Sequence record: OP870146.1
Direction: 5' to 3' (one strand)
DNA length: 64,000 nt
Origin: Escherichia phage vB_Eco_F27
Part shown: positions 12,312 to 44,357 of the stretch, in pieces
Numbering within the stretch: position 1 is the first letter of the stretch
Layout of the letters: each line of letters opens with the position of its first letter
Translations under genes and position numbers: made by a program
The notes under the pieces: model-generated
What the model was told of the DNA's origin: nothing
Database searches by the model: none
What the model saw: only the letters and a program-made list of their open reading frames with translations

Positions 12312-12339
12312 TTTATTTTCCTCTATAGTAGATGGTTTA

Positions 12340-12368
12340 ATCTTAACACATCTATTGAGGATGTAAAC
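12340..12368 (-). promoter_or_regulatory. early sigma70-type promoter
   Basis: Minus strand: GTTTAC, 17 nt, TAAGAT. The spacer is partly complementary to the 5' UTR. Confidence 0.55.
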
Positions 12369-25053: not shown

Positions 25054-25523
25054 TTAGCCTTATATTCAAGAGTAGGACAGACTTTTTCTTTACGAGCTTT
25101 AAGGTATTCGCCTATTAATGATTTCTTACGTTCAATAGGCTCAAGTCCATTTTTAATTCGTTCTTGGTTTTGTGCAATGAGCTCAATTTCTTTATAATAT
25201 TTTCTGTCGTTATATTTGTCTAACAACCAAGACGGACCAATTACCAACCCGGTAGCAATAAAAGCCATGACTGCTACAATTAAAACGCCTACACCAATTG
25301 AGGCTGGAACTAATGTCCATAGACTGCTAAAAACAAAGAATTTAGTTAAAATTTCCTGGCCAATGATTGTGACTGCTGCTAAAATCGCAAATCCAATAAT
25401 TGAAACAGCTAATACCGGGATTAGCGTTTTCCAAAAATAAGCACACAACGTTTTCGGACGATTCCATGTACTATTGAACGCGGCATAAATTTTAAAGTGC
25501 CAAGAGTTTTCATTGATAATCAT
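25050..25523 (-). CDS. membrane protein
   Basis: 157 aa with three or four hydrophobic helices and a basic C-terminal tail. Confidence 0.6.
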   Translation of the reverse strand: MIINENSWHFKIYAAFNSTWNRPKTLCAYFWKTLIPVLAVSIIGFAILAAVTIIGQEILTKFFVFSSLWTLVPASIGVGVLIVAVMAFIATGLVIGPSWLLDKYNDRKYYKEIELIAQNQERIKNGLEPIERKKSLIGEYLKARKEKVCPTLEYKAK

Positions 25524-25532
25524 AATAATTCC

Positions 25533-26063
25533 TTATTTCAAAGTTGGGATAATAGAATCGAGATAAGCTTTAAGAGCAACTGCTTCATCTTTGTCTAATG
25601 TAATGATATGTTGACGAAGGTCATCAATTTGGCGAATAACTACGACATCACCGTCTTCATAAGAAGGATTAACGCCTAGGACTGTTGTATAGTCAGGGCG
25701 GTCCTGATTTGTAATAAAAGCATTACGGCATTTAGCCCATTGAAGTTTGGCCTTTTTGGCTGTTTCAGATTCCATTAATTCTTTCACCTTAGTGACGAAT
25801 GTTTTCCAATTATTGATAGAAAGGCATTCATCTTCTGTTTCGATATTAACCCCACTATAAAGACCGTGATAAAAACGAACTTGAAGGTCTTCATCAATGT
25901 TAATTACAGATGCATGGCCGGGCGGATTGAGTTTCAAAATCTTGTCCAGTTCCATAGGAAGAATAGTAACAGCATCATCTTCTTGTGTCAGAACGTAAGC
26001 ATAACCACGTTTTTCGATACATAAATCACCAAACAACTCAGTCGTTTCAATTACAGTTTTCAT
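25533..26063 (-). CDS. hypothetical protein
   Basis: ORF 25533..26075. The ATG at 26063 (MKTVIETTE) is preferred over the upstream TTG. Confidence 0.6.
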   Translation of the reverse strand: MKTVIETTELFGDLCIEKRGYAYVLTQEDDAVTILPMELDKILKLNPPGHASVINIDEDLQVRFYHGLYSGVNIETEDECLSINNWKTFVTKVKELMESETAKKAKLQWAKCRNAFITNQDRPDYTTVLGVNPSYEDGDVVVIRQIDDLRQHIITLDKDEAVALKAYLDSIIPTLK

Positions 26064-26314
26064 ATTATTCACCAATTAAAGTTTCAACAAAATTCACTAA
26101 AGCATTCTGGCAAGCATCAACCTGATTTCTATAAAAATTAAATAAGATCCATCAATTTATTAGCTTGTTCACGAGTCATTTTACCATGCTCGCTTCAATA
26201 AGATTCATTACACCATTTACCATGTTATAGGTAAACATCGGATAATTGTATTGTACTACAACATAAGCGATAAGCAAAAGTTTCATTTTGTTCTCCATTT
26301 GTTTTGGTAGGACT

Positions 26315-26344
26315 ACTATAACATAGTCCTACCAAGTTGTAAAC
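26315..26344 (-). promoter_or_regulatory. early promoter cassette (PeSL type)
   Basis: Minus strand: GTTTAC, 18 nt, TATAGT. Inverted repeat TAGGACTA/TAGTCCTA surrounds the -10. Confidence 0.65.
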
Positions 26345-26550
26345 TACCGATTGTGTTTTAAATGTTGATAAAGCTCTTCAACTTGTTTAGGGTCCAAAAC
26401 AATTAAGTCATTTTCTTGACGAAGATAAATCCATCCCTTATCCCCAGGACCATTTTTACAAAACATCACCACCATATCATCATCTTCAGCGCTTTCAGGT
26501 AAAAGTTCAAGTACACCGTCTTCAGATTTTCCAGTATAATCGTAAAGCAT
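26344..26550 (-). CDS. hypothetical acidic protein
   Basis: The ATG at 26550 (MLYDYTGKSE) follows GAGGAUAUU. Confidence 0.55.
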   Translation of the reverse strand: MLYDYTGKSEDGVLELLPESAEDDDMVVMFCKNGPGDKGWIYLRQENDLIVLDPKQVEELYQHLKHNR

Positions 26551-26557
26551 AATATCC

Positions 26558-26737
26558 TCACATAATCTCGTTAACATACATTTGCAATTCGGTGTGGGCG
26601 TCAGCCATCTTTTTCATAGCTCTGTTAATGTCGATGTCTCCATCTTCGCAACCATGAGCATTTTCCCAATCAGATACCGCATTAGCGTACTCTTCAATCA
26701 AAAACATTAACTTAGAAATTTTTTCTTTACGTGACAT
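26558..26737 (-). CDS. small hypothetical protein
   Basis: The ATG at 26737 (MSRKEKISKL) follows AGAGGAGAAC and lies downstream of the promoter at 26765..26793. Confidence 0.55.
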   Translation of the reverse strand: MSRKEKISKLMFLIEEYANAVSDWENAHGCEDGDIDINRAMKKMADAHTELQMYVNEIM

Positions 26738-26764
26738 AACGTTCTCCTCTAGTAAGTAAGGTTT

Positions 26765-26793
26765 ACTATAACACAACCTGAGGAGAAGTAAAC
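26765..26793 (-). promoter_or_regulatory. early promoter cassette
   Basis: Minus strand: GTTTAC, 17 nt, TATAGT. The spacer TTCTCCTC is complementary to GAGGAGAA in the 5' UTR. Confidence 0.65.
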
Positions 26794-26804
26794 TGATAGA
26801 TGCC

Positions 26805-26832
26805 AAAAAGCCCCAACCTTTCGGAAGGGGCT
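26805..26832 (-). terminator. intrinsic terminator after rI, identical copy at 42073..42101
   Basis: Minus-strand AGCCCCUUCC-GAAA-GGUUGGGGCU followed by U5. The 28-nt sequence recurs exactly at 42074..42101. Confidence 0.75.
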
Positions 26833-26838
26833 AGTAAA

Positions 26839-27141
26839 TTAGATAGATGTAGGCTCTAATTTTATTTTCATGAACTCGGCAAATTGTCTGGCAGTTTTTA
26901 TGCCTTGTTCATGACATTCAAATGCATCATCACAGGGGCTATTTTTGTAATGCTTTGCCATATACTTATAGAATTTTTCAGAATTCTCGACATTTTGAAT
27001 TTCAAACAAAGTATATACGTTTTTAATCCCTGATTCCATAAAGTTATCAAAATATGGGTCGATATATGCAGTACCAACGATAGGAGTTGTTGCTGCAAAA
27101 AACCCCAGCATCGCCATGACAGCTATCGCTCTTAAGGCCAT
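26839..27141 (-). CDS. rI: lysis-inhibition regulator rI (antiholin)
   Basis: 100 aa. The signal-anchor N-terminus and DPYFDNFMESGIKNVYTLFE...PCDDAFEC...IKLE align with remembered T4 RI. Confidence 0.85.
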   Translation of the reverse strand: MALRAIAVMAMLGFFAATTPIVGTAYIDPYFDNFMESGIKNVYTLFEIQNVENSEKFYKYMAKHYKNSPCDDAFECHEQGIKTARQFAEFMKIKLEPTSI

Positions 27142-27153
27142 ATAGGCCTCCTG

Positions 27154-27366
27154 TTAATTTTGGCCAGTATTTATTTTTCGCCTTTGGACGGCCTTAACAT
27201 CTGTGAGGTATTTTTCCAGCTTGCGCTTGCGTGTATAATCAGCTTTAGAACCAGTTTGACGGATATCCTCGTTTAAATGAGAAATAGAATGTCCTAATTC
27301 TCTTCGGATTTCATCCAATTTGGTTACAGTAAGATTACGAAGTTGTCTTTCGTTTAATTGCTGCAT
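27154..27366 (-). CDS. hypothetical basic protein (rI.1 position)
   Basis: 70-aa ORF between tk and rI. Confidence 0.6.
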
Positions 27367-27393
27367 ATATACCTCTTGGTTAGATATTAGTAT

Positions 27394-27975
27394 TTATAAC
27401 AACCCTGTCAAATCGTTCCAATGCTTCCGGCATAATGACACATATCTATCGGTATCACCAATTTCAATTTGACTGCCATCTGTAATTGGAAGTCCGTCTT
27501 CCGTGACTCTAGCTACCATTGTGGCCTTTTTACCGCAATGACAGACACCTTTAAGTTCAACAAGCTTATCGGCAATAGCCATTAATGCTTGAGAACCTTC
27601 AAATAGATTACCTTTAAAATCTGTTCGTAGTCCATATGCCATTACCGGCACATTGTATACGTCAACAATACGACTAAGTTGATACACCTTTTCAGTAGTT
27701 AAGAACTGAGCTTCGTCAACAAATACGCAGTGAATATCCTTTTGTGCTGCAGCCCATTTATAGAATTCAAAGATATCCATGTCTTTTGTAATTATATTGG
27801 CGTCCTGGCGAATACCAATACGAGAGACTATTTCACCTTTTGAATCGCGAGTATCAATAGCCGGTTTAAGAACTAATACACCCATGCCACGTTCTTTATA
27901 GTTATGTGCGGCAGTAAGTAATGAAGCAGACTTACCAGCGTTCATAGCGGCATAGGTAAAAATTAAACTAGCCAT
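27394..27975 (-). CDS. tk: thymidine kinase
   Basis: 193 aa as in T4. P-loop AMNAGKS, FVDEAQF, zinc motif CHCG...CRKH. Confidence 0.93.
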   Translation of the reverse strand: MASLIFTYAAMNAGKSASLLTAAHNYKERGMGVLVLKPAIDTRDSKGEIVSRIGIRQDANIITKDMDIFEFYKWAAAQKDIHCVFVDEAQFLTTEKVYQLSRIVDVYNVPVMAYGLRTDFKGNLFEGSQALMAIADKLVELKGVCHCGKKATMVARVTEDGLPITDGSQIEIGDTDRYVSLCRKHWNDLTGLL

Positions 27976-27984
27976 AAGAGTCCC

Positions 27985-28167
27985 TTATAGTGAATTCACG
28001 TAGTCAATGAGTTCTTGTTCTTTCCTGTCAAATGATTCCAACAATGCTTGATATTCTTCGTCCGTCAAAGGAGCATATTCATCATACGCATTGGTGGCTG
28101 CTTGCTCATCCAATAGGTCATGGATAAGTTCAAACAGTTTAGTTTTCTCTTCTTTAGTCAATTTCAT
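27985..28167 (-). CDS. small acidic hypothetical protein
   Basis: 60-aa ORF (tk.1 position). Confidence 0.55.
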   Translation of the reverse strand: MKLTKEEKTKLFELIHDLLDEQAATNAYDEYAPLTDEEYQALLESFDRKEQELIDYVNSL

Positions 28168-28376
28168 TTAGGTTCACCTTCTTTAACGAAATCTGGGTAA
28201 GGGTAAAATCCTGAGTAAAACCCTTCACCTTTATGATTGCTACAACCTTTGTTCGAACAGTAACACCAATAATCAAAATCACAAGCCATTTCGTCATTGC
28301 ATAAAGCAAAAACTACAGGCCATTCGCATTTTTCGCATTTAGCACCTGTAAGAATTTTTGTTTGACTCATAGCCAT
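28164..28376 (-). CDS. Cys-rich small protein
   Basis: The ATG at 28376 (MAMSQTKIL). Contains CEKCEW...CNDEMAC...CYCSNKGCSNH. Confidence 0.55.
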   Translation of the reverse strand: MAMSQTKILTGAKCEKCEWPVVFALCNDEMACDFDYWCYCSNKGCSNHKGEGFYSGFYPYPDFVKEGEPK

Positions 28377-28579
28377 GTCACCTTTAAGCAATATTCTTCT
28401 ACATGTTGTTTACGGCCTTTCTTATCAATAAAGGTATATTCAACGAATGTTCCGATGTAGTCTTTATCTACATCATGTGGACTATTAATTGGACATTTAG
28501 TACGACAAATGCGTTCCCATTGACGAATAATTACTGCCTTATTCTTTGGATCATATGGATGTGGATAATGTATATTCAT
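28367..28579 (-). CDS. hypothetical protein
   Basis: The ATG at 28579 (MNIHYPHPYDP) overlaps the stop of the macro-domain gene (ATGA). Confidence 0.55.
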   Translation of the reverse strand: MNIHYPHPYDPKNKAVIIRQWERICRTKCPINSPHDVDKDYIGTFVEYTFIDKKGRKQHVEEYCLKVTWL

Positions 28580-29043
28580 AATAACGGTTCCCAATCAACA
28601 ATCACAATTTCTAGTTTAGTGGAATACGTATCTAAAATCTCTTCGATGACATCCCAGTTTCCACCACCAATACCTGCACCAATTCTTGGCATATAAATTA
28701 CAGGCTTTGTTATCTTATTCTTTCCGAATTCATTTAATTCTATTATACAATTCATTAAAGCAGAGTACTCAAAATTAGGTCCCGGCTCAAACTGTGTATA
28801 AAGATTAAAGCAATAAGCTTTATGGGTCTTAAAATATTTTTCATAAACCGAATAAGTCCAGAGTTTAGACTTGTCTCCGAATTCGGTTTGAAGTTTATCG
28901 GCTTCCAGAATTTTTGGATAAGCCTTTGCTAATTGCCCTGCCACACCAGCGCCCATTGTATGAAAACAATTACACCCATGAGCAATATTATTACCTTTAG
29001 AAAACAGGGCGACAATATCGCCCTTGATATAGTTTTTAATCAC
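28576..29043 (-). CDS. macro-domain protein, TARG1/OARD1-like
   Basis: IKGDIVALF...AHGCNCFHTMGAGVAGQL...MPRIGAGIGGGNWDVIEEIL parallels the human TARG1 blocks (KGDLF, [28 protein letters not shown]). Start is uncertain: GTG at 29043 with AGAGGA upstream, or TTG at 29073. Confidence 0.6.
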   Translation of the reverse strand: MIKNYIKGDIVALFSKGNNIAHGCNCFHTMGAGVAGQLAKAYPKILEADKLQTEFGDKSKLWTYSVYEKYFKTHKAYCFNLYTQFEPGPNFEYSALMNCIIELNEFGKNKITKPVIYMPRIGAGIGGGNWDVIEEILDTYSTKLEIVIVDWEPLL

Positions 29044-29383
29044 TTGCTGCAAGTCCTCTATTATAAGAGTCAACTAAACGGTCCACCATAGAATTGCATG
29101 CTGCCTTATCTTTAGGTTCCGCCACCGAGCATTCTAATATTTGCCATTTTTTATAGTATCTTTTAATTAAGGTAGACGCCTTGAACCTACTAGACGCCCC
29201 ATCTTTTTCTCCGTCTTTATAAGCGTATAACAATTTTTGTGAAAAATCTACTTTACACTCTTGACTTTTACCACAATAATCAGACGCCGTTCTGTTTGTA
29301 TACTCCGTTACATCAGTATATGTAGTATTAGCAAGAGCGTTAAATGAAACCAAGCCAACTATTAAAGCCAACATTTTGGTCAT
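29036..29383 (-). CDS. secreted protein (T4 vs position, same 115-aa length)
   Basis: Signal peptide MTKMLALIVGLVSFNALA. Four Cys residues. Assignment to vs is positional only. Confidence 0.5.
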   Translation of the reverse strand: MTKMLALIVGLVSFNALANTTYTDVTEYTNRTASDYCGKSQECKVDFSQKLLYAYKDGEKDGASSRFKASTLIKRYYKKWQILECSVAEPKDKAACNSMVDRLVDSYNRGLAASD

Positions 29384-29922
29384 TCTTTTATTTCCAGTAG
29401 TTTATTTGATTTAAGGTAATTAGCCTTTTCTAGGACTTCAGAAGCATATTTACTTCCAGCACTTGTCTTCCATCCCGCATTATATGAGGATATAGCTTTT
29501 CTTATATCCCCGTTATGTATATTTAACCAATAAGAAAATTCGATATAAGCCCATCTGGTTGAATTAGACCGCTTAGATAGCATTTTCTTAATTTGGGCAT
29601 CAGTCATATTATAACCAAGCTGGTTAATTCTTGCCCTCATTGTTGGTAGATAATTTTGGAACATTCCATACGCATGGTGACCTTTCTTATCTTTAAGATT
29701 AATACCGGCAGATGATTCCTGCCATAGTATTGCGGCCATTATGTATCCAAGTCCTTTCTTATGCATATTTTCATGCGTTTTAAATTTTCCATCCTTAGAA
29801 AACTGTTCCCCAAACTGATAAGCATAATTCAAGTTATCGAGTTGGACATTACTAAAAGTATGCTCGGAGCTATGTGCTGATAACGAAAGAGCAAATAGAC
29901 CAGCGAGTAGTGCTTTTCTCAT
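29380..29922 (-). CDS. secreted soluble lytic transglycosylase (SLT) domain protein (vs.1 position)
   Basis: Signal peptide MRKALLAGLFALSLSA. SLT motifs WQESS, GMFQ and SYNAGW. Confidence 0.75.
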   Translation of the reverse strand: MRKALLAGLFALSLSAHSSEHTFSNVQLDNLNYAYQFGEQFSKDGKFKTHENMHKKGLGYIMAAILWQESSAGINLKDKKGHHAYGMFQNYLPTMRARINQLGYNMTDAQIKKMLSKRSNSTRWAYIEFSYWLNIHNGDIRKAISSYNAGWKTSAGSKYASEVLEKANYLKSNKLLEIKE

Positions 29923-29930
29923 GTTTACCT

Positions 29931-30389
29931 CTAGATTTTAATCACTGCTTTAGAAGCTTTTCCTGGTAGTCGTTTACTGTTAATAATAGCCATTCTGCAT
30001 TGAAGAGTCTTCATTTTGAATGCTGGATTTTCGCGACAAACTGTAAGTCCTAACCAAAGATTTCCGTCAGTTATTTCTAAACGGCCTGGACGATACTCGA
30101 CACCTTCGACAAAATCTTCATCAACATCTGGACGGGCCGGCATTGATAAAAATTCTGCAACTTCTTTAACATGATTTTTTACTTTATGAAATAATTCAAA
30201 AACGTAATTCTCATCTATTTCTCTCTGGATGGCACGATCTAAGAGATGTTGAGAATACTTGATATGAAAGCCTGGTAGTCCAAGAGACTTTGCAGCATCT
30301 TTTATACTGGCATTTATTTTGCGGAACTCCGTTTCAAAGATTCGACGGAGTTTATTACGGCGGATAAAAACGTCTGAATTGATAGTCAT
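29931..30389 (-). CDS. regB: sequence-specific endoribonuclease RegB
   Basis: 152 aa. MTINSDVFIRRNKLRR...HLLDRAIQREIDE.YVFELFHK...GVEYRPGRLEITDGNLWLG...RLPGKASKAVIK matches remembered T4 RegB. Confidence 0.9.
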   Translation of the reverse strand: MTINSDVFIRRNKLRRIFETEFRKINASIKDAAKSLGLPGFHIKYSQHLLDRAIQREIDENYVFELFHKVKNHVKEVAEFLSMPARPDVDEDFVEGVEYRPGRLEITDGNLWLGLTVCRENPAFKMKTLQCRMAIINSKRLPGKASKAVIKI

Positions 30390-30417
30390 TTTGATTTCTC
30401 CTCTAGTTGACAGGTCT

Positions 30418-30446
30418 ATAGTAACACAACTAGAGGAGAAGTAAAC
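30418..30446 (-). promoter_or_regulatory. early promoter cassette of regB with SD-sequestering inverted repeat
   Basis: Minus strand: GTTTAC, 17 nt, TACTAT. The spacer TTCTCCTCTAGTTG (30427..30440) is perfectly complementary to CAACTAGAGGAGAA (30397..30410), which contains the regB SD. Confidence 0.7.
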
Positions 30447-30449
30447 TGC

Positions 30450-30659
30450 TTATTCTTGGAATGGTGTGAGTTTTCCAGCTATCGAACAAATTTCTACCAT
30501 TGCAGGATAAAACTCTTTCACTTGTTCAAGGCGCTGGACAGCGTACCGCATTTCGCCTTCTTCAAGACAAGCCACCTGGTCATCGAGCAAATATTTGTGG
30601 TAACCAGTACAGGCTTCACTAATGATACGTTGGAATTCTTGCAAACTTTCAATTTTCAC
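30450..30659 (-). CDS. hypothetical protein (vs.3 position)
   Basis: ORF 30450..30701. A GTG at 30659 (KIESLQEF...) with GAGGA 9 nt upstream avoids a 43-nt overlap. Confidence 0.5.
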   Translation of the reverse strand: MKIESLQEFQRIISEACTGYHKYLLDDQVACLEEGEMRYAVQRLEQVKEFYPAMVEICSIAGKLTPFQE

Positions 30660-30925
30660 TAGTATTTTTCCTCGGGTCGAAATACTGCACGACATGCCCA
30701 CATGCTGGCTTCTTTTAGATGTTGCTTAGCATACTTAAGAGCCTGTACTGCATCCATATCTTCTTTGGTTTGTTGCTCTGTTTCATTTTCTTTCAAGATA
30801 TATGCTTCTTCAATCAGAGCATCAAACAACAATCCAAGACGGACTTCTGCATCTTTAATAGCGTTCACTTTACCGATTTTATCGTCGGTATGTGGCTTGT
30901 AGCCTTTAATATCTTCAATCGACAT
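30659..30925 (-). CDS. vs.4: Acb2-like cyclic-oligonucleotide sponge (T4 vs.4 homolog)
   Basis: From the ATG at 30925 the product is 88 aa, MSIEDIKGYKPHTDDKIGKVNAIKDAEVRLG...LKYAKQHLKEASMWACRAVFRPEEKY. Both the vs.4 position and the ...EA.MWA.RA... C-terminal helix are typical of Acb2. Called from memory only. Confidence 0.55.
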   Translation of the reverse strand: MSIEDIKGYKPHTDDKIGKVNAIKDAEVRLGLLFDALIEEAYILKENETEQQTKEDMDAVQALKYAKQHLKEASMWACRAVFRPEEKY

Positions 30926-31139
30926 AAGGAATTTCCTCATCGGTGGCAAGGTCATATTCGACCAATTGGATAGGCTCATTAATACCATATCCACGTACAG
31001 TGATATCAGTTGCCGGATAGTTTCCAGTAATATCACCCATTCTAAATGCTTCAGTGAATGATTGCTCGCCTGAGCAACTAAACCAGGCGGCAAAACATTT
31101 TAAAACATCTTCAGACCCTTCTATAATCAATTTAGCCAT
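30915..31139 (-). CDS. hypothetical acidic protein (vs.5 position)
   Basis: 74-aa ORF. Confidence 0.6.
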   Translation of the reverse strand: MAKLIIEGSEDVLKCFAAWFSCSGEQSFTEAFRMGDITGNYPATDITVRGYGINEPIQLVEYDLATDEEIPYVD

Positions 31140-31501
31140 TATAGACTCTCAGTAAAGGTACGAGCGATAACGTCGCGCTGCTGTTCCGGAGTCAGAGAGT
31201 TAAAGCGAACTGCATAACCGGATACACGGATGGTCAGCTGCGGATATTTTTCCGGATGCTTAACTGCATCTTCCAGAGTTTCGCGACGCAGAACGTTAAC
31301 GTTCAGGTGTTGACCACCTTCAATTTTAACTTTAGGTTGATGTTCAATTTCAATTTCACGGGCATGCAAACCGTAGAAAATTTCCGGGTCTACAATAGAG
31401 TCTTCTTTAAAAGTCTTAGAGACGATAATCCGGGCTTGAGTACCGTCTTCAAAATAAATAGTGCCTTTATGTGTACCTTCAAGAATTTGATATGCTTTCA
31501 T
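31139..31501 (-). CDS. autonomous glycyl-radical cofactor (GrcA/YfiD-like; T4 Y06I homolog)
   Basis: 120 aa. The C-terminal [29 protein letters not shown] carries the RVSGYAV glycyl-radical motif of PflB and GrcA. Confidence 0.85.
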
Positions 31502-31507
31502 ATAACC

Positions 31508-31816
31508 TCAATTAGAAAATAAATTTATCCAAGATTTTTCTTTAATCAAAAATGGGTCGGAATTAAACGCCATTAAACTTTGAGTGATTAATCCCTTAAA
31601 TGGCCCATCAATAAATTCCATTTTGAAATGTGGAATACTAGTCATCAACCGTGCATTAGGAGCAGTACAAAGAACATGCTGCCCTGCGAACGGACCTTTA
31701 GTTAAACGATATCGTTTAGGTTTAAAATGGTAAATCTCGTAATTTTCTACAAGAGCCCTTTTATTGCATACTGGGCTGTTATAACAATACTCAAAAACTT
31801 CAATAGTGGTCATCAT
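31508..31816 (-). CDS. hypothetical protein
   Basis: 102-aa ORF. Confidence 0.6.
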   Translation of the reverse strand: MMTTIEVFEYCYNSPVCNKRALVENYEIYHFKPKRYRLTKGPFAGQHVLCTAPNARLMTSIPHFKMEFIDGPFKGLITQSLMAFNSDPFLIKEKSWINLFSN

Positions 31817-32352
31817 TGCATTCCAATCACAAAAAATTGAGGACGAGCATTACCGCCGATGCAATATTTGCTTTTGCAGCAGTGCTGTACTGTTTTAATG
31901 TGGACATTGTAAATCTTATCCATATCAGGAGCTTTAATAGGCTCGTCAATTATATACAGAATACGAGAAAGCGTTAATCCACGGAATTTAGAACCTTCAT
32001 TGCCAATAAAACTACGAACAGAATCAGTAAATAAACGGAATCGAATATCATCGCTAGAATAACGAGAAAATTCTTTTTTAATGTTGCCAGCAGAAATTTT
32101 AGCATAAGCTGAAGTATTAGAAAGAACAATAACTGTTCCACCATCATATAGCCAATTAACAGCAAAATTAGTTACTGCGGACGATTTACCTGATTGTCTG
32201 CCGCCGTCTAAACGAAGTGTACAGTACTGCTTGAGTACGTCTTCAAATGGTGGGGCATAACCGTTCTTACAAATTTCTTCTACTCTAGCATCAGAATGGT
32301 GTGTAAAAGCATTCATCAGGGATAGATAAGGTCCAGTTAAAAATGTTCTCAT
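31813..32352 (-). CDS. P-loop NTPase
   Basis: 179 aa. Walker A GGRQSGKSS, Walker B LYIIDEP. Confidence 0.65.
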   Translation of the reverse strand: MRTFLTGPYLSLMNAFTHHSDARVEEICKNGYAPPFEDVLKQYCTLRLDGGRQSGKSSAVTNFAVNWLYDGGTVIVLSNTSAYAKISAGNIKKEFSRYSSDDIRFRLFTDSVRSFIGNEGSKFRGLTLSRILYIIDEPIKAPDMDKIYNVHIKTVQHCCKSKYCIGGNARPQFFVIGMQ

Positions 32353-32433
32353 TTAGTTTCTCTTTTAGGTTGGGCCATTCCGTGGCGCATGAATTGTCCA
32401 TTTCTGTATTTACCCCTCCAAGTAATTATGAAT

Positions 32434-32462
32434 ATACTATCACAATTCTAGGAGATGTAAAC
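32434..32462 (-). promoter_or_regulatory. early promoter
   Basis: Minus strand: GTTTAC, 17 nt, TAGTAT. The -35 abuts the stop of the upstream internal-protein gene. Confidence 0.55.
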
Positions 32463-32861
32463 TTATTTGTAGGTTTTCATCCAATTCTTGAACAAAGCCG
32501 CGACGTCTTTCTCTTTAACGTTCAGTTTAATGTCCAACATTTTACCGCCCGCTGCTCTCGTTTGACGAATCTTAGCAGTACCGGTTTCACCATTCCACTC
32601 AACATAATATTGCCCAGTGTTCATAGCGATACCGTTGCCAAAGTCTTCGTTATTAGAAGTAGTGAATGCCAACTTCATGGTCTTAGAGACACGGGCCGGC
32701 ATGCCTGTCTGAAGGGCATTACGAACGCGAATAACCTGAGGAGTGGCCTGGGTCAGGTTCTCATTCAGTTCTTCGGTGAACTCTTCAGATTCAAACATCG
32801 CCAAAAGTTCTTTAGATGCAGGAATTACATTCTCTGCGATAAATTCTTTATATGTTTTCAT
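32463..32861 (-). CDS. capsid-targeted internal protein (IP-A)
   Basis: The N-terminus MKTYKEFIAE-N is the T4 capsid targeting sequence, with an I-x-E prohead-protease site at residue 10. Sits in the ipII/ipIII neighbourhood next to e. Confidence 0.75.
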   Translation of the reverse strand: MKTYKEFIAENVIPASKELLAMFESEEFTEELNENLTQATPQVIRVRNALQTGMPARVSKTMKLAFTTSNNEDFGNGIAMNTGQYYVEWNGETGTAKIRQTRAAGGKMLDIKLNVKEKDVAALFKNWMKTYK

Positions 32862-32892
32862 TTTTTGTTTCCTTGTTTGTTTTGATAGAGTA

Positions 32893-32922
32893 ATTATACC
32901 ATATTAATACTTAAGCGTAAAC
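32893..32922 (-). promoter_or_regulatory. early promoter
   Basis: Minus strand: GTTTAC, 18 nt, TATAAT. Confidence 0.6.
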
Positions 32923-32925
32923 CGT

Positions 32926-33186
32926 TTAAGCTTTACCGCCAGAAATAATTCCGAAGTTGTTAAAATCGTATCCAATATCGTCAACATCTACTTTAGGACT
33001 TACTACAACATAAGCAATTTCACTACGTTTTGCATAGGTGTTTATTTCTTTACCATCACCACCTAAGAAAGAATACCCATTACGTTTTAATGAGCCAAAG
33101 TCTTCCGCATCACCAATGAAAGCTTTAACTTTAAATTTAGGACCTTTGGCATCTGCTTCAACGATAAATTCTTGATACATTTTCAT
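32926..33186 (-). CDS. capsid-targeted internal protein (IP-B)
   Basis: N-terminus MKMYQEFIVE-A (CTS plus I-x-E site). 86 aa. Confidence 0.7.
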   Translation of the reverse strand: MKMYQEFIVEADAKGPKFKVKAFIGDAEDFGSLKRNGYSFLGGDGKEINTYAKRSEIAYVVVSPKVDVDDIGYDFNNFGIISGGKA

Positions 33187-33192
33187 TTTTCC

Positions 33193-33303
33193 TTAGTAAA
33201 TTGATTTACCATAGTATTTGTACCAAGTCGGACGTTGAGCAATTTTTTCATCTAAGCGTGCTTGATTTATCGCAATGGACGCTTCGGACGGGTCATAATT
33301 TCC
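33193..33303 (-). pseudogene. denV: denV (endonuclease V, pyrimidine-dimer glycosylase) 3' remnant
   Basis: The translated tail [36 protein letters not shown] matches the C-terminus of T4 endonuclease V ([37 protein letters not shown]). The upstream ~100 codons are missing and no in-frame ATG remains. A promoter cassette abuts the break. Confidence 0.8.
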
Positions 33304-33323
33304 TCCAAGTAGTTGATGAATGT

Positions 33324-33353
33324 ATAGTATCAAAACCCTTGGAGGAAGTAAAC
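33324..33353 (-). promoter_or_regulatory. early promoter cassette at the denV breakpoint
   Basis: Minus strand: GTTTAC, 18 nt, TACTAT. The spacer TTCCTCCAAG (rc of 33338..33347) is complementary to CTTGGAGGAA (rc of 33300..33309). Confidence 0.6.
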
Positions 33354-33355
33354 AA

Positions 33356-33637
33356 CTATTTTTCTGAAGCGCCTGAAATATATTTTTCAAGACGTTGTTT
33401 CATTAAAGAGCCGTTCTTAGCGATTTCTTCCGGTTTATCGCACATACGCAACAAGGCTTCGAGCTTAACGATATCGCTGGTACGTTCAAATTTGCGAGTA
33501 TCTATCTTACTAGCAAGTTCAGAAATACGTGCTAATAGACTTTCGGCTTCAACCAAAGCTGCACCTAGCTTAGTTGCAAATGTGTCAGTAGCTTCGTTAA
33601 GAATAGATTCTGATAAAAATTCACTATATGTTTTCAT
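33356..33637 (-). CDS. capsid-targeted internal protein (IP-C)
   Basis: From the ATG at 33637 (ATGA overlap with the e stop) the N-terminus is [11 protein letters not shown] (CTS plus L-x-E site). 93 aa. Confidence 0.7.
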
Positions 33638-34122
33638 ATATACGCTTTCCAAGTTCCTGTTTTAAATGTTGAGATTACGCGTTTCGCGCGATTAGGTGTC
33701 TGACGATACCATTTAGATTGGGCTAGATTTACTGCCGCTTCGTCCCAACGTTTCTGTTGAAGCATACGAAGAGAATTAGTAAAACCGGCAACGCCTGCTA
33801 CGCCCATTTGGAAGACCATATTGACCAATGCACATCGACGAACAGCATCTAAAGAATCATATACCGGTTTAAGTTTAGCATTACCCAAGATTCCGCGAAC
33901 GGCTTTATCAACGTCTTCATTAAATAGCTTTTCAGCCTCATCAAGGGTAATTGTACCGTTGCATTTACGACCGATCATTCTGTCAAGTTCAGCTTTAGCT
34001 ACGGCTAAAGAAGGGTTCTTTGTTACTAAATGGCCTATGCCAATCGTCCAAAAGCCTTCAGTGTCTTTGTATAAAGTCAGTCTAAGACCTTCGTCATTAC
34101 GAAGCATTTCAAATATATTCAT
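33634..34122 (-). CDS. e: lysozyme (endolysin) e
   Basis: [32 protein letters not shown]...[56 protein letters not shown] is near-identical to T4 lysozyme. 162 aa. Confidence 0.95.
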
Positions 34123-34150
34123 AATACCTCCCACGTTTATAGGAGGTATT
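34123..34150 (-). promoter_or_regulatory. SD-sequestering hairpin of gene e
   Basis: Minus-strand AAUACCUCC-UAUAAACGUG-GGAGGUAUU lies immediately before the e ATG. The 9-bp stem buries the SD, and a late-promoter-like TATAAAC sits in the loop. T4 controls e translation this way. Confidence 0.7.
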
Positions 34151-34156
34151 TATTAC

Positions 34157-34612
34157 TTATAGGAGGGTAGTGAGCACCTTATATAATGATTTGCCCATTA
34201 CATATTCCCATTGAGAAGGTTTAATTAAAGCGAATGCATCAAATTCAGGAATCTGACGTCCGTCTGGGAATGTATGATAGGAATTACAAACACTGTTTCT
34301 GAATTGCTCGTGCTCTACAGGGATGGTATATAGGAACAGATGAATATTCTTATTGTCTGAGTAATGATGTTCACCTAGGTCTTTCAGGAAGGCAGGGTCA
34401 TATTGTGTAAACCCAGTTTCTTCTTCGCATTCACGAATAGCGGCTTCAATAGGAGATTCGCCAGGTTCGACACGGCCTTTAGGAATATCCCACCGATGAG
34501 CTAATGCACCTTTAGGACGAGAACCAGTTACACGGCCCATGAATAATTCTTTATCTTTTGTCATGAAGATAATACCAGCGGACAACTCTTTCACTTTATT
34601 TTTCTTACTCAT
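34157..34612 (-). CDS. nudE: Nudix hydrolase NudE (e.1)
   Basis: Nudix box GRVEPGESPIEAAIRECEEETG. 151 aa from the second ATG, adjacent to e as in T4. Confidence 0.88.
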   Translation of the reverse strand: MSKKNKVKELSAGIIFMTKDKELFMGRVTGSRPKGALAHRWDIPKGRVEPGESPIEAAIRECEEETGFTQYDPAFLKDLGEHHYSDNKNIHLFLYTIPVEHEQFRNSVCNSYHTFPDGRQIPEFDAFALIKPSQWEYVMGKSLYKVLTTLL

Positions 34613-42072: not shown

Positions 42073-42101
42073 ATATTTATACAAAAAAGCCCCAACCTTT
42101 C
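42073..42101 (-). terminator. intrinsic terminator closing the tRNA/stable-RNA unit (identical to 26805..26832)
   Basis: Minus-strand AGCCCCUUCC-GAAA-GGUUGGGGCU followed by U6. Confidence 0.75.
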
Positions 42102-42144
42102 GGAAGGGGCTATATACCTTGTCGGGGTTTCCACCTACTAAGGC

Positions 42145-42236
42145 AAGTGTTTGTACGAAACGCCGGGATTCGAACCCGGTTATTGAGTAGTTGACGCTAC
42201 TCAATATTTTTAAAAGGCCATATCTCGACCATATCC
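42145..42236 (-). ncRNA. tRNA-like stable RNA (candidate counterpart of T4 rnaC/rnaD species)
   Basis: Has a 7-bp acceptor-like stem (CGGAACG/CGUUUCG), a canonical T arm (CCGGG-UUCGAAU-CCCGG) and a 10-bp hairpin (UAUUGAGUAG-CGUCAA-CUACUCAAUA). No normal anticodon arm is present. Lies at the 3' end of the tRNA unit, as the T4 species 1 and 2 RNAs do. Confidence 0.5.
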
Positions 42237-42410
42237 GAACGTTCCGTCAAAAACGCTACTCGGCTTACGGCAAAGATATTTCCTCGAATCGATAATTCGG
42301 TGCGCCGTTTCTGCTGTGATGTAAGGGGATATTAACAAATCGTAAAGATTTATTAAGACCAGTCCTTACTCAGGGAACATCAGTCCGACGACTTACCGGT
42401 AGCGACCCGG
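42237..42410 (-). ncRNA. non-coding transcribed spacer or second stable RNA candidate
   Basis: 174 nt lacks any ORF and lies between the ORF at 42415 and the tRNA-like RNA. It contains the small hairpin CGAAU-UAUCG-AUUCG. Boundaries unknown. Confidence 0.3.
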
Positions 42411-42414
42411 CTTC

Positions 42415-42759
42415 TTATTTTGGCATATCATCAATTTGCTCTCGACGCCGACGCCATAGATTAATCGCTTCATAAACACATTCTGCGTTTGGTATATGAC
42501 GGCAATAATATAATGATTCGCGTTTCTGGAATCGATGTTGCAATGGGATTTCGTTTAAAAGGTCTTTACGGTCAAAGTATTCAAAACTAGTTAACCCGGA
42601 ACGGTTTTTAATGAACTTCCAATGACCAAATTCATTTTGAACATAGATGTAATCTGCATGTTGGTATAACAAATTAATCAATCGGTCTGAAATAACTGTA
42701 TCATGTTCGTTAAAATAAAACGTTAAATCATGAACTACTAAGTAAACATTACCTTTCAT
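42415..42759 (-). CDS. hypothetical protein embedded in the tRNA region
   Basis: The ATG at 42759 (MKGNVYLVVHD) follows GUGAGGAAAAU. The longer track ORF would overlap tRNA-Arg. Confidence 0.6.
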   Translation of the reverse strand: MKGNVYLVVHDLTFYFNEHDTVISDRLINLLYQHADYIYVQNEFGHWKFIKNRSGLTSFEYFDRKDLLNEIPLQHRFQKRESLYYCRHIPNAECVYEAINLWRRRREQIDDMPK

Positions 42760-44327: not shown

Positions 44328-44357
44328 ACTATAACATAATCCTATCGTGTTGTAAAT
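44328..44357 (-). promoter_or_regulatory. early promoter cassette (PeSL type)
   Basis: Minus strand: ATTTAC, 18 nt, TATAGT. Inverted repeat GATAGGATTA/TAGTCCTATC. Confidence 0.6.

Follow-up and report, generated by a model that had tools for sequence, protein, structure and literature searches.

A Shine-Dalgarno-complementary element in the spacer of the regB early promoter of an RB69-like phage and a possible translational gate set by promoter of origin

Why should the early promoter of regB in Escherichia phage vB_Eco_F27 carry, in the spacer between its -35 and -10 boxes, a perfect complement of the Shine-Dalgarno (SD) segment of its own gene? The question is raised by the 64,000-nucleotide (nt) stretch of record OP870146.1 analyzed here, called the window throughout. 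The window belongs to a Mosigvirus, an RB69-like phage of the T4 type. It is 98% identical to phage moha across 29.0-33.5 kb and keeps the minus-strand gene order of T4 (denV, vs.8 ... vs.3-like, regB, vs.1, vs, tk). The answer that we favor, with moderate confidence, is that the complementarity would form a translational gate limiting regB and genes of its kind to the transcripts of their own early promoter. A subset of the T4-type early promoters, which are of the sigma-70 type, probably carries such an anti-SD element upstream of its own predicted start, usually in the first 10-15 nt of the spacer.

On the minus strand, the regB spacer begins with TTCTCCTCTAGTTG, which forms a perfect 14-bp inverted repeat with CAACTAGAGGAGAA downstream. 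The first-pass annotation of this DNA, made from the letters alone, had proposed this pairing and is correct in this respect, but it placed the downstream arm one base off, at 30397-30410 instead of 30396-30409, and it gave the motif past the -10 box as AGACCTATC, while the sequence at regB reads AGACCTGTC. The -10 box and the downstream arm are separated by AGACCTGT, and the arm is followed by ATCAAA and then by the ATG (30389-30387). The predicted start at 30411 falls between the arms, and the upstream arm lies between the -35 and -10 boxes (Table 1). For every cassette, we folded the read-through RNA, taken from a point 30 nt 5' of the -35 box through ATG+30, and the local RNA beginning at the predicted start, the 7th nt past the -10 box. 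The regB read-through RNA reached -21.6 kcal/mol (z -4.45), with 0 of 200 dinucleotide shuffles as stable, and the local 5' end, at -3.7 kcal/mol (z +0.96), was unstructured. The probability of the SD being unpaired was 0.37 in the local RNA and 0.00 in the read-through RNA. Rfam 15, searched at the gathering score over the window, returned two tRNAs only, and at the regB site there were only sub-threshold matches to microRNA hairpins.

These folds suggest how the gate could work. A polymerase coming from an upstream promoter would transcribe the anti-SD element, which would pair with the SD segment 20-30 nt downstream in an 11- to 15-bp hairpin of -14 to -22 kcal/mol; such a hairpin would keep the 30S subunit from binding and, at regB, protect the GGAG from being cut by RegB. 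RNA from the embedded promoter would start between the arms and, lacking the 5' arm, would leave the SD exposed. Translation of a gated gene would then depend solely on transcripts of its own early promoter and be limited to the first minutes of infection. Early promoters are found upstream of regB at 32462, 32922 and 33353, with no convincing terminator before the gene; the one minus-strand terminator-like site in between (31857-31842) has a weak stem of 5 pairs. Terminator-like sites in 25500-34500 were not enriched (8 versus 5.9 in shuffles), and the scan found none at any cassette. Read-through is plausible since the cassettes lack a U-tract terminator. The open reading frame (ORF) upstream of regB ends with a TAA at 30450..30452 on the minus strand, 9 nt 5' of the upstream arm, so that a terminating ribosome should leave the stem intact. 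RegB cleaves the GGAG SD of its own mRNA and is inhibited by secondary structure (PMC3014915, PMC1702504), and because of this the read-through regB RNA should be both silent and RegB-resistant.

A second instance is found at denV. This gene is intact in RB69 and moha and, as had been supposed from the sequence, is a remnant in the window, where a 9-codon ORF (ATG ACC CGT CCG AAG CGT CCA TTG CGA TAA, 33296-33267) is left and the C-terminus stands in another frame. The remnant (33193-33353, minus strand) retains a complete promoter/SD hairpin cassette, and its 10-bp pairing was located as claimed. The denV-remnant read-through RNA had -19.1 kcal/mol (z -4.19), and its SD was unpaired with a probability of 0.09 in the local RNA and 0.00 in the read-through RNA. 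Thus, both hairpins are far more stable than shuffled sequences, and the local-start RNAs are unstructured (z +0.28 for the denV remnant), in line with the original expectation. The intact denV genes of RB69 and T4 have a similar hairpin (in T4, -18.0 kcal/mol at denV and -22.4 kcal/mol at regB). Among 30 unique denV cassettes, the SD was occluded in 23, and this is achieved by two geometries. The 5' arm either lies in the spacer (TTCCTCCAAG/CTTGGAGGAA, TCTCCTGTAG/CTACAGGAGA, ATCTCCGTTTG/CAAACGGAGAT) or consists of the 3' half of the -10 box plus the discriminator and pairs with the SD and the AUG (ATGATGTCTTCC/GGAGGACATCAT), and in both it is upstream of the predicted start. In no sampled lineage does a promoter stem of the control gene e.6, if there is one, extend over the SD. 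Since the SD is enclosed by the stem at regB and denV but never by a stem at e.6, the stem class is a property of the gene and not a random draw of a cassette.

The sensitivity of RegB to structure allows a different emphasis, in which the chief role of the hairpin is to keep RegB away from the GGAG inside long polycistronic RNAs, which leaves vs.1, vs and tk expressed downstream, and the silencing of regB is a side effect. RegB does cut its own SD and is inhibited by structure, as noted above, and in a T4 study, what set the sixteen RegB-resistant RNAs apart was the capacity to form stable structures with the GGAG inside. However, the T4 denV SD is RegB-resistant anyway through its 3' context (PMC1702504), and yet the hairpin is kept at denV in the majority of cassettes counted above; moreover, several of the genes with an occluded SD (GAGGA, GGAGG) are not known to be RegB targets. 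We consider shielding unlikely to be the chief role, and it is compatible with the translational gate rather than exclusive of it.

RegB is encoded in roughly 1,100 phage genomes. Conservation of the regB pairing was followed in 43 regB loci from viral contigs (L numbers denote loci), from which the 60 nt before each start codon gave 33 unique cassettes. In the minimum-energy fold, the GGAG pairs with spacer nt 3-6 (+/-1) in the great majority of these cassettes. The pairing is present in most T4-type lineages, T4 included, and is built from at least 10 different arm sequences (examples in Table 1). It is missing in L045/47/48, L052/53 and the Aeromonas phage L058, and in the Aeromonas-type L059-L061 the pairing of the SD is partial and involves the spacer's end. 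Covariation was scored in a gapless alignment of 21 distinct regB cassettes anchored on the GGAG and its partner, an anchoring that favors the structure in the core, whereas the distal pairs, which hold most of the covariation, are free of this bias. Of the cells, 76% were paired, compared to 65% after shuffling and 43-50% when the partners were slid, both-sided changes occurred in 12 of the 15 stem pairs, and none of 500 shuffles reached the covariation score (0.315 versus 0.132). One-sided, stem-weakening changes were rare and shallow, being seen in L027 and L029 only. Default MAFFT with RNAalifold on 15 regB cassettes returned zero pairs, with the SDs misaligned.

How far the arrangement extends beyond these two genes was assessed across the window, in which a scan for GTTTAC-N16-19-TAnnnT gave 18 matches on the minus strand versus 1 on the plus strand. 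Our curated set comprises 23 cassettes with at most one mismatch in the -35 box and with an SD and an ORF downstream, and 18 of them have an exact GTTTAC. The assertion that more than 20 promoters share one design thus holds for the promoter itself, with one -35 mismatch allowed, but not for the whole motif, because the full design including AG(A/T)CCT past the -10 box is present in 7 cassettes with an exact -35 box and in about 10 with one mismatch. In 13 of the 23 cassettes, the spacer forms a perfect stem of at least 6 bp with the sequence downstream, and in 5 of them one of at least 8 bp, compared to 2.97 and 0.19 expected with shuffled spacers. We assigned a cassette to class A, in which the SD is hidden in the read-through RNA, when its loss of SD accessibility was beyond that of at least 94% of 100 controls with a dinucleotide-shuffled upstream part. 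Five cassettes belong to this class, and in the other 18 (class B) the SD is open and there is either no stem or a stem around the -10 box. The idea that read-through RNA hides the SD and local RNA exposes it is therefore predicted to apply to 5 of the 23 cassettes, not to all. CTCC or CCTC occurs in 5 of the 23 spacers versus a background of 3.8% (P = 1.4e-3), and the spacers that have it are exactly those of the five SD-occluding cassettes and no others.

Besides regB and the denV remnant, class A contains three cassettes. The pairing claimed for the cassette at 26741..26793 was found in its place, and the SD went from 0.53 unpaired in the local RNA to 0.00 in the read-through RNA, an occlusion beyond that of 98% of shuffled controls. 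The other two had escaped the first-pass annotation. In the two-part stem of the 12368 cassette, UCCUC (12361-12357) pairs with GAGGA (12323-12319) and UAGAUG (12354-12349) with CAUCUA (12334-12329); the SD is unpaired at 0.70 in the local RNA and 0.01 in the read-through RNA (-12.0 kcal/mol, z -2.47), and the RB69 counterpart is likewise occluding. The 32462 cassette has an inner stem, its -35 box is paired too, and its SD goes from 0.81 to 0.07 unpaired in the read-through RNA (-20.0 kcal/mol, z -3.90). It is homologous to the promoter cassettes of T4 ipII/ipIII. The 36-amino-acid (aa) ORF behind it (32291-32401) overlaps the start of vs.8, and moha has an IpIII gene there; judging by this layout, a deletion seems to have left the cassette as an orphan. 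One further candidate, the 41359 cassette (TTCTTCCC), appeared by eye to have an anti-SD and was rejected since folding predicts no SD occlusion.

The cassettes have the architecture of the PeSL elements (early promoter plus stem-loop) of other T4-type phages, that is, a sigma-70-like early promoter lying between genes, with the SD and start codon of the following gene behind it. The link to PeSLs drawn in the first-pass annotation is thus sound for the architecture, but the PeSL papers give the stems a terminator role and not a translational one. The stems could accordingly be PeSL terminators or attenuators of upstream transcription, as proposed for RB49 and phi1, with inclusion of the SD an accident of a compact AT-rich cassette. 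One RB49 stem-loop cuts downstream lacZ expression like a strong terminator (PMC2839356), stems are present in more than half of the window cassettes, and most of them, those of class B, are off the SD and equally stable. Many class B stems are indeed as strong as those of class A and do not reach beyond the -10 box and the start region. Nevertheless, no U tract follows the stems, and terminator-like sites occur at shuffle frequency. At regB, AUCAAAAUG stands after the stem in place of a U tract, so that the combination of a GC-rich stem and a U tract that marks an intrinsic terminator is absent. The 5' untranslated region (UTR) is 21-23 nt long in class A and class B alike, which argues that geometry does not compel inclusion of the SD. 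The inclusion is gene specific and conserved, and denV attains it in two ways. As an account of the SD-enclosing stems, termination seems improbable to us, and the class B stems may still serve as terminators.

The same kind of subset was found in T4, where we scanned 33 GTTTAC cassettes across three quarters of the genome (loci L153, L062, L154). The SD was occluded beyond 95% of shuffled controls in 8 of the 33 versus 1.65 expected (P = 1.8e-4). Besides regB and denV, the occluding set holds e.8 and the cassettes that apparently drive dexA and nrdC.8, two genes assigned by map position only. Three genes of this set, regB, denV and dexA, all encode nucleases. Accessibility in T4 is bimodal, with 13 of the 33 cassettes in which the SD is more accessible than in at least 75% of the shuffled controls, in addition to the 8 strongly occluded ones, which hints at selection in both directions. 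A looser criterion, under which the SD pairs with anything upstream at P > 0.5, flagged 16 of the 33 and was dropped as too permissive because shuffled sequences often pair as well.

Several results weigh against a translational gate, and they bear on two further explanations. Complementarity could be a functionless product of chance between pyrimidine-rich spacers and purine-rich SDs. In shuffled controls, the mean probability of an unpaired SD was only 0.2-0.6, so that a purine-rich SD will often pair in part with what lies upstream by chance. The hairpin of the 26793 cassette (-14.2 kcal/mol, z -1.33) is not significant in energy. The mean SD accessibility over all T4 early cassettes is not shifted (0.35 versus 0.39), and SD occlusion is confined to a subset of them. 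Chance does not account for a perfect 14-bp stem where one of at least 10 bp is expected in 0.01 cassettes, for conservation with double-sided changes, or for the excess of occluded cassettes in T4, and we regard it as very improbable. The inverted repeats could also act as DNA, either as substrates for recombination or gene conversion that move cassettes, as in PeSL shuffling, or as cruciforms, the arms being copied together. RB49 and phi1 provide a demonstrated case of PeSL-mediated exchange (PMC2839356). The T4 denV cassette GTTTACATCTCCTGTAGGTATGATACTATAGACCTATCAACTACAGGAGA (L062, 35332-35395) is nearly identical to the regB and denV cassettes of the L038-L043/L065-L069 phages, which suggests that whole cassettes have been copied between genes and genomes. 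As a result of such copying, some of the "compensatory" differences may be replacements and not stepwise coevolution, and the counts of G-U and A-C in the stems (5 versus 4) do not separate the RNA level from the DNA level. However, copying explains the spread of the cassettes and not the complementarity of each of at least 10 arm pairs, and it leaves unexplained why the SD is always in the 3' arm at regB and denV. Loops of 16-20 nt generally disfavor cruciform extrusion, and the scarcity of stem-weakening changes also speaks against a DNA-level role, which we think quite unlikely.

Table 1. Positions of the regB cassette and other features in the window, and regB arm pairs from other lineages
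Feature	Position	Strand	Sequence	Remarks
regB early promoter, -35 box	30441..30446	minus	GTTTAC	cassette identical in RB69
regB 5' arm (anti-SD)	30427..30440	minus	TTCTCCTCTAGTTG	first 14 nt of promoter spacer; predicted in read-through RNA only
regB -10 box	30418..30423	minus	TACTAT	TGT directly before; inside hairpin loop
regB predicted transcription start	30411	minus	G of GTC	7th nt past -10 box; T4-type early promoter geometry (PMC1524935)
regB 3' arm	30396..30409	minus	CAACTAGAGGAGAA	includes SD GGAG at 30401-30398
regB coding sequence	29931..30389	minus		protein 100% identical to RB69 RegB
denV-remnant cassette	33300..33353	minus		-35 box 33353-33348; -10 box 33329-33324; start codon 33296
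denV-remnant arms	33347-33338 / 33309-33300	minus	TTCCTCCAAG / CTTGGAGGAA	
Cassette before ORF starting 26737 (MSRKEKISKLM...)	26741..26793	minus	TTCTCCTC / GAGGAGAA	arms 26787-26780 and 26748-26741
Cassette before 55.6-like ORF (ATG 12311)	12319..12368	minus		two-part stem
Cassette before 36-aa ORF (ATG 32401)	32408..32462	minus	UCUCC / GGAGG	arms 32455-32451 and 32419-32415
Class B contrast cassette	26280..26344	minus		13-bp stem over -10 box and start region; SD free; -20.6 kcal/mol, z -4.95
Gene e (lysozyme) canonical SD-hiding hairpin	34123..34150	minus	AAUACCUCCUAU / GUGGGAGGUAUU	-16.3 kcal/mol, z -4.32; e start 34122
regB arms, RB69 type			TTCTCCTCTAGTTG / CAACTAGAGGAGAA	
regB arms, T4 type			TTTTCCTCTTGACTG / CAGTTAAGAGGAGAA	two G-U pairs
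regB arms, L028			TTTCTCCTCTTTATG / CATAAAGAGGAGAAA	
regB arms, L038			ATCTCCTGTAG / CTACAGGAGAT	
regB arms, L030			ATCTCCTTTTAGT / ACTAAAAGGAGAT	
regB arms, L044			ATCCTCATTTGATTGTG / CACAAACAAATGAGGAT	one mismatch
regB arms, L046			CCTCCTTT / AAAGGAGG	

The logic of the proposed gate is that of the hairpins of T4 e, soc, 49 and I-TevI (and also of segB and Aeh1 mobE), in which the 3' strand comprises the SD and/or the AUG and the 5' strand lies upstream of the start of an internal promoter. In those genes, long transcripts are silent and promoter-proximal ones are translated. The T4 e hairpin lowers lysozyme synthesis 100-fold (PMC3014915), and the stems at regB and the denV remnant are more stable than that of gene e in the window (-21.6 and -19.1 versus -16.3 kcal/mol). 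Upstream of this gene e (34123-34165, minus strand), only the degenerate late-promoter-like motifs TATAAGTA, AATAAATA and TATAAACG were seen, with no exact TATAAATA. The known cases in which a ribosome-binding site is sequestered by a hairpin with an embedded promoter are all late genes (PMC2988022, PMC3014915), served by the gp55 late promoter TATAAATA; regB, by contrast, is an early gene, with a GGAG SD conserved in T4-related phages, and its promoter is of the early type, GTTTAC-N17-TACTAT. The e/soc type delays translation to late times, whereas the arrangement described here would confine it to the immediate-early burst, and here the 5' strand sits in the promoter spacer itself. From sequence comparison, we infer an early-promoter version of the T4 late-gene (e, soc) logic, that is, a known logic in a new promoter class.

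Three other systems resemble the regB arrangement in part. The PeSL cassettes of RB49/phi1, PST and nt-1 share the strong early promoter with a stem-loop between or across its boxes, followed by an SD and a start codon, and they are repeated between genes with signs of copying between genes. In the two PeSL papers, the stems are understood as terminators and recombination sites with the SD drawn outside, and translation goes unmentioned, while here a gene-specific subset encloses the SD. Autoregulation of regB by RegB involves the same gene and the same GGAG SD, but its target is the SD left exposed in the proximal transcript, and the hairpin would add a second layer on the read-through RNA. 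As in bacterial anti-SD sequestrators (translational riboswitches and RNA thermometers), a CUCC-type strand pairs with the SD, which in those systems blocks initiation; those elements switch by ligand or temperature, whereas here the state would be set by the promoter of origin. A hairpin gate is unmentioned in the RegB reviews and the RB69 genome paper, older print literature being outside our reach. Valerie et al. reportedly noted in 1986 potential stem-loops before ipIII, ipII, denV and orf61.9, and the stems themselves are probably not new.

Some features of the surrounding sequence deserve mention in their own right. The capsid-targeting sequence known from T4 internal proteins, in the form MKTY(Q/K)EFI or MKMYQEFI, opens several small minus-strand ORFs. 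These ORFs lie at window positions 32861 and 33186 and at the ORF starts behind the promoters at 44357 and 44734 (minus strand), and by their sequences they indicate a variable Ip gene set, each member with its own early-promoter cassette upstream. A non-coding stretch at 42080-42450 on the minus strand, 3' of an ORF ending at about 42415, contains a tRNA-like T-arm (GGTTCGAATCCCGG) and has a strong terminator (gccccttccgaaaggttggggcttttttgt) at its end; no tRNA is predicted there by ARAGORN or Rfam. The stretch may be the counterpart of the T4 stable RNAs C and D, which are neighbors of tRNA genes. From the RB69 layout, e.8 would be expected at this place, where the window has no orthologue of it; the e.8 cassette is SD-occluding in T4 and RB69.

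A wider interpretation, which we offer only tentatively, is that the spacers of roughly a quarter of the T4-type early promoters carry an anti-SD tag that would mark an RNA by its promoter of origin and split long polycistronic RNAs into translationally insulated units. On this interpretation, genes such as regB, denV and dexA would owe their products solely to their own immediate-early promoters, and the read-through copies would be silent, RegB-resistant and, as untranslated RNA, possibly exposed to Rho. With the tag inside a mobile PeSL cassette, start, gate and SD would move as one module of about 60 bp.

In conclusion, a translational gate at the early promoters of T4-type phages would, if it exists, have consequences at several levels, and the idea is directly testable since T4 and RB69 are tractable. 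It would constitute a third layer of regB control, beside the shut-off of the early promoter and self-cleavage, and it would supply one concrete cause for the RegB resistance of some GGAG sites in long T4 transcripts. Some of the PeSL stem-loops would have a translational and not a terminator role. Promoter spacers, which are usually treated as free sequence, could then carry information at the RNA level, and if read-through copies are silent, operon structure alone does not give the expression class of a gene.

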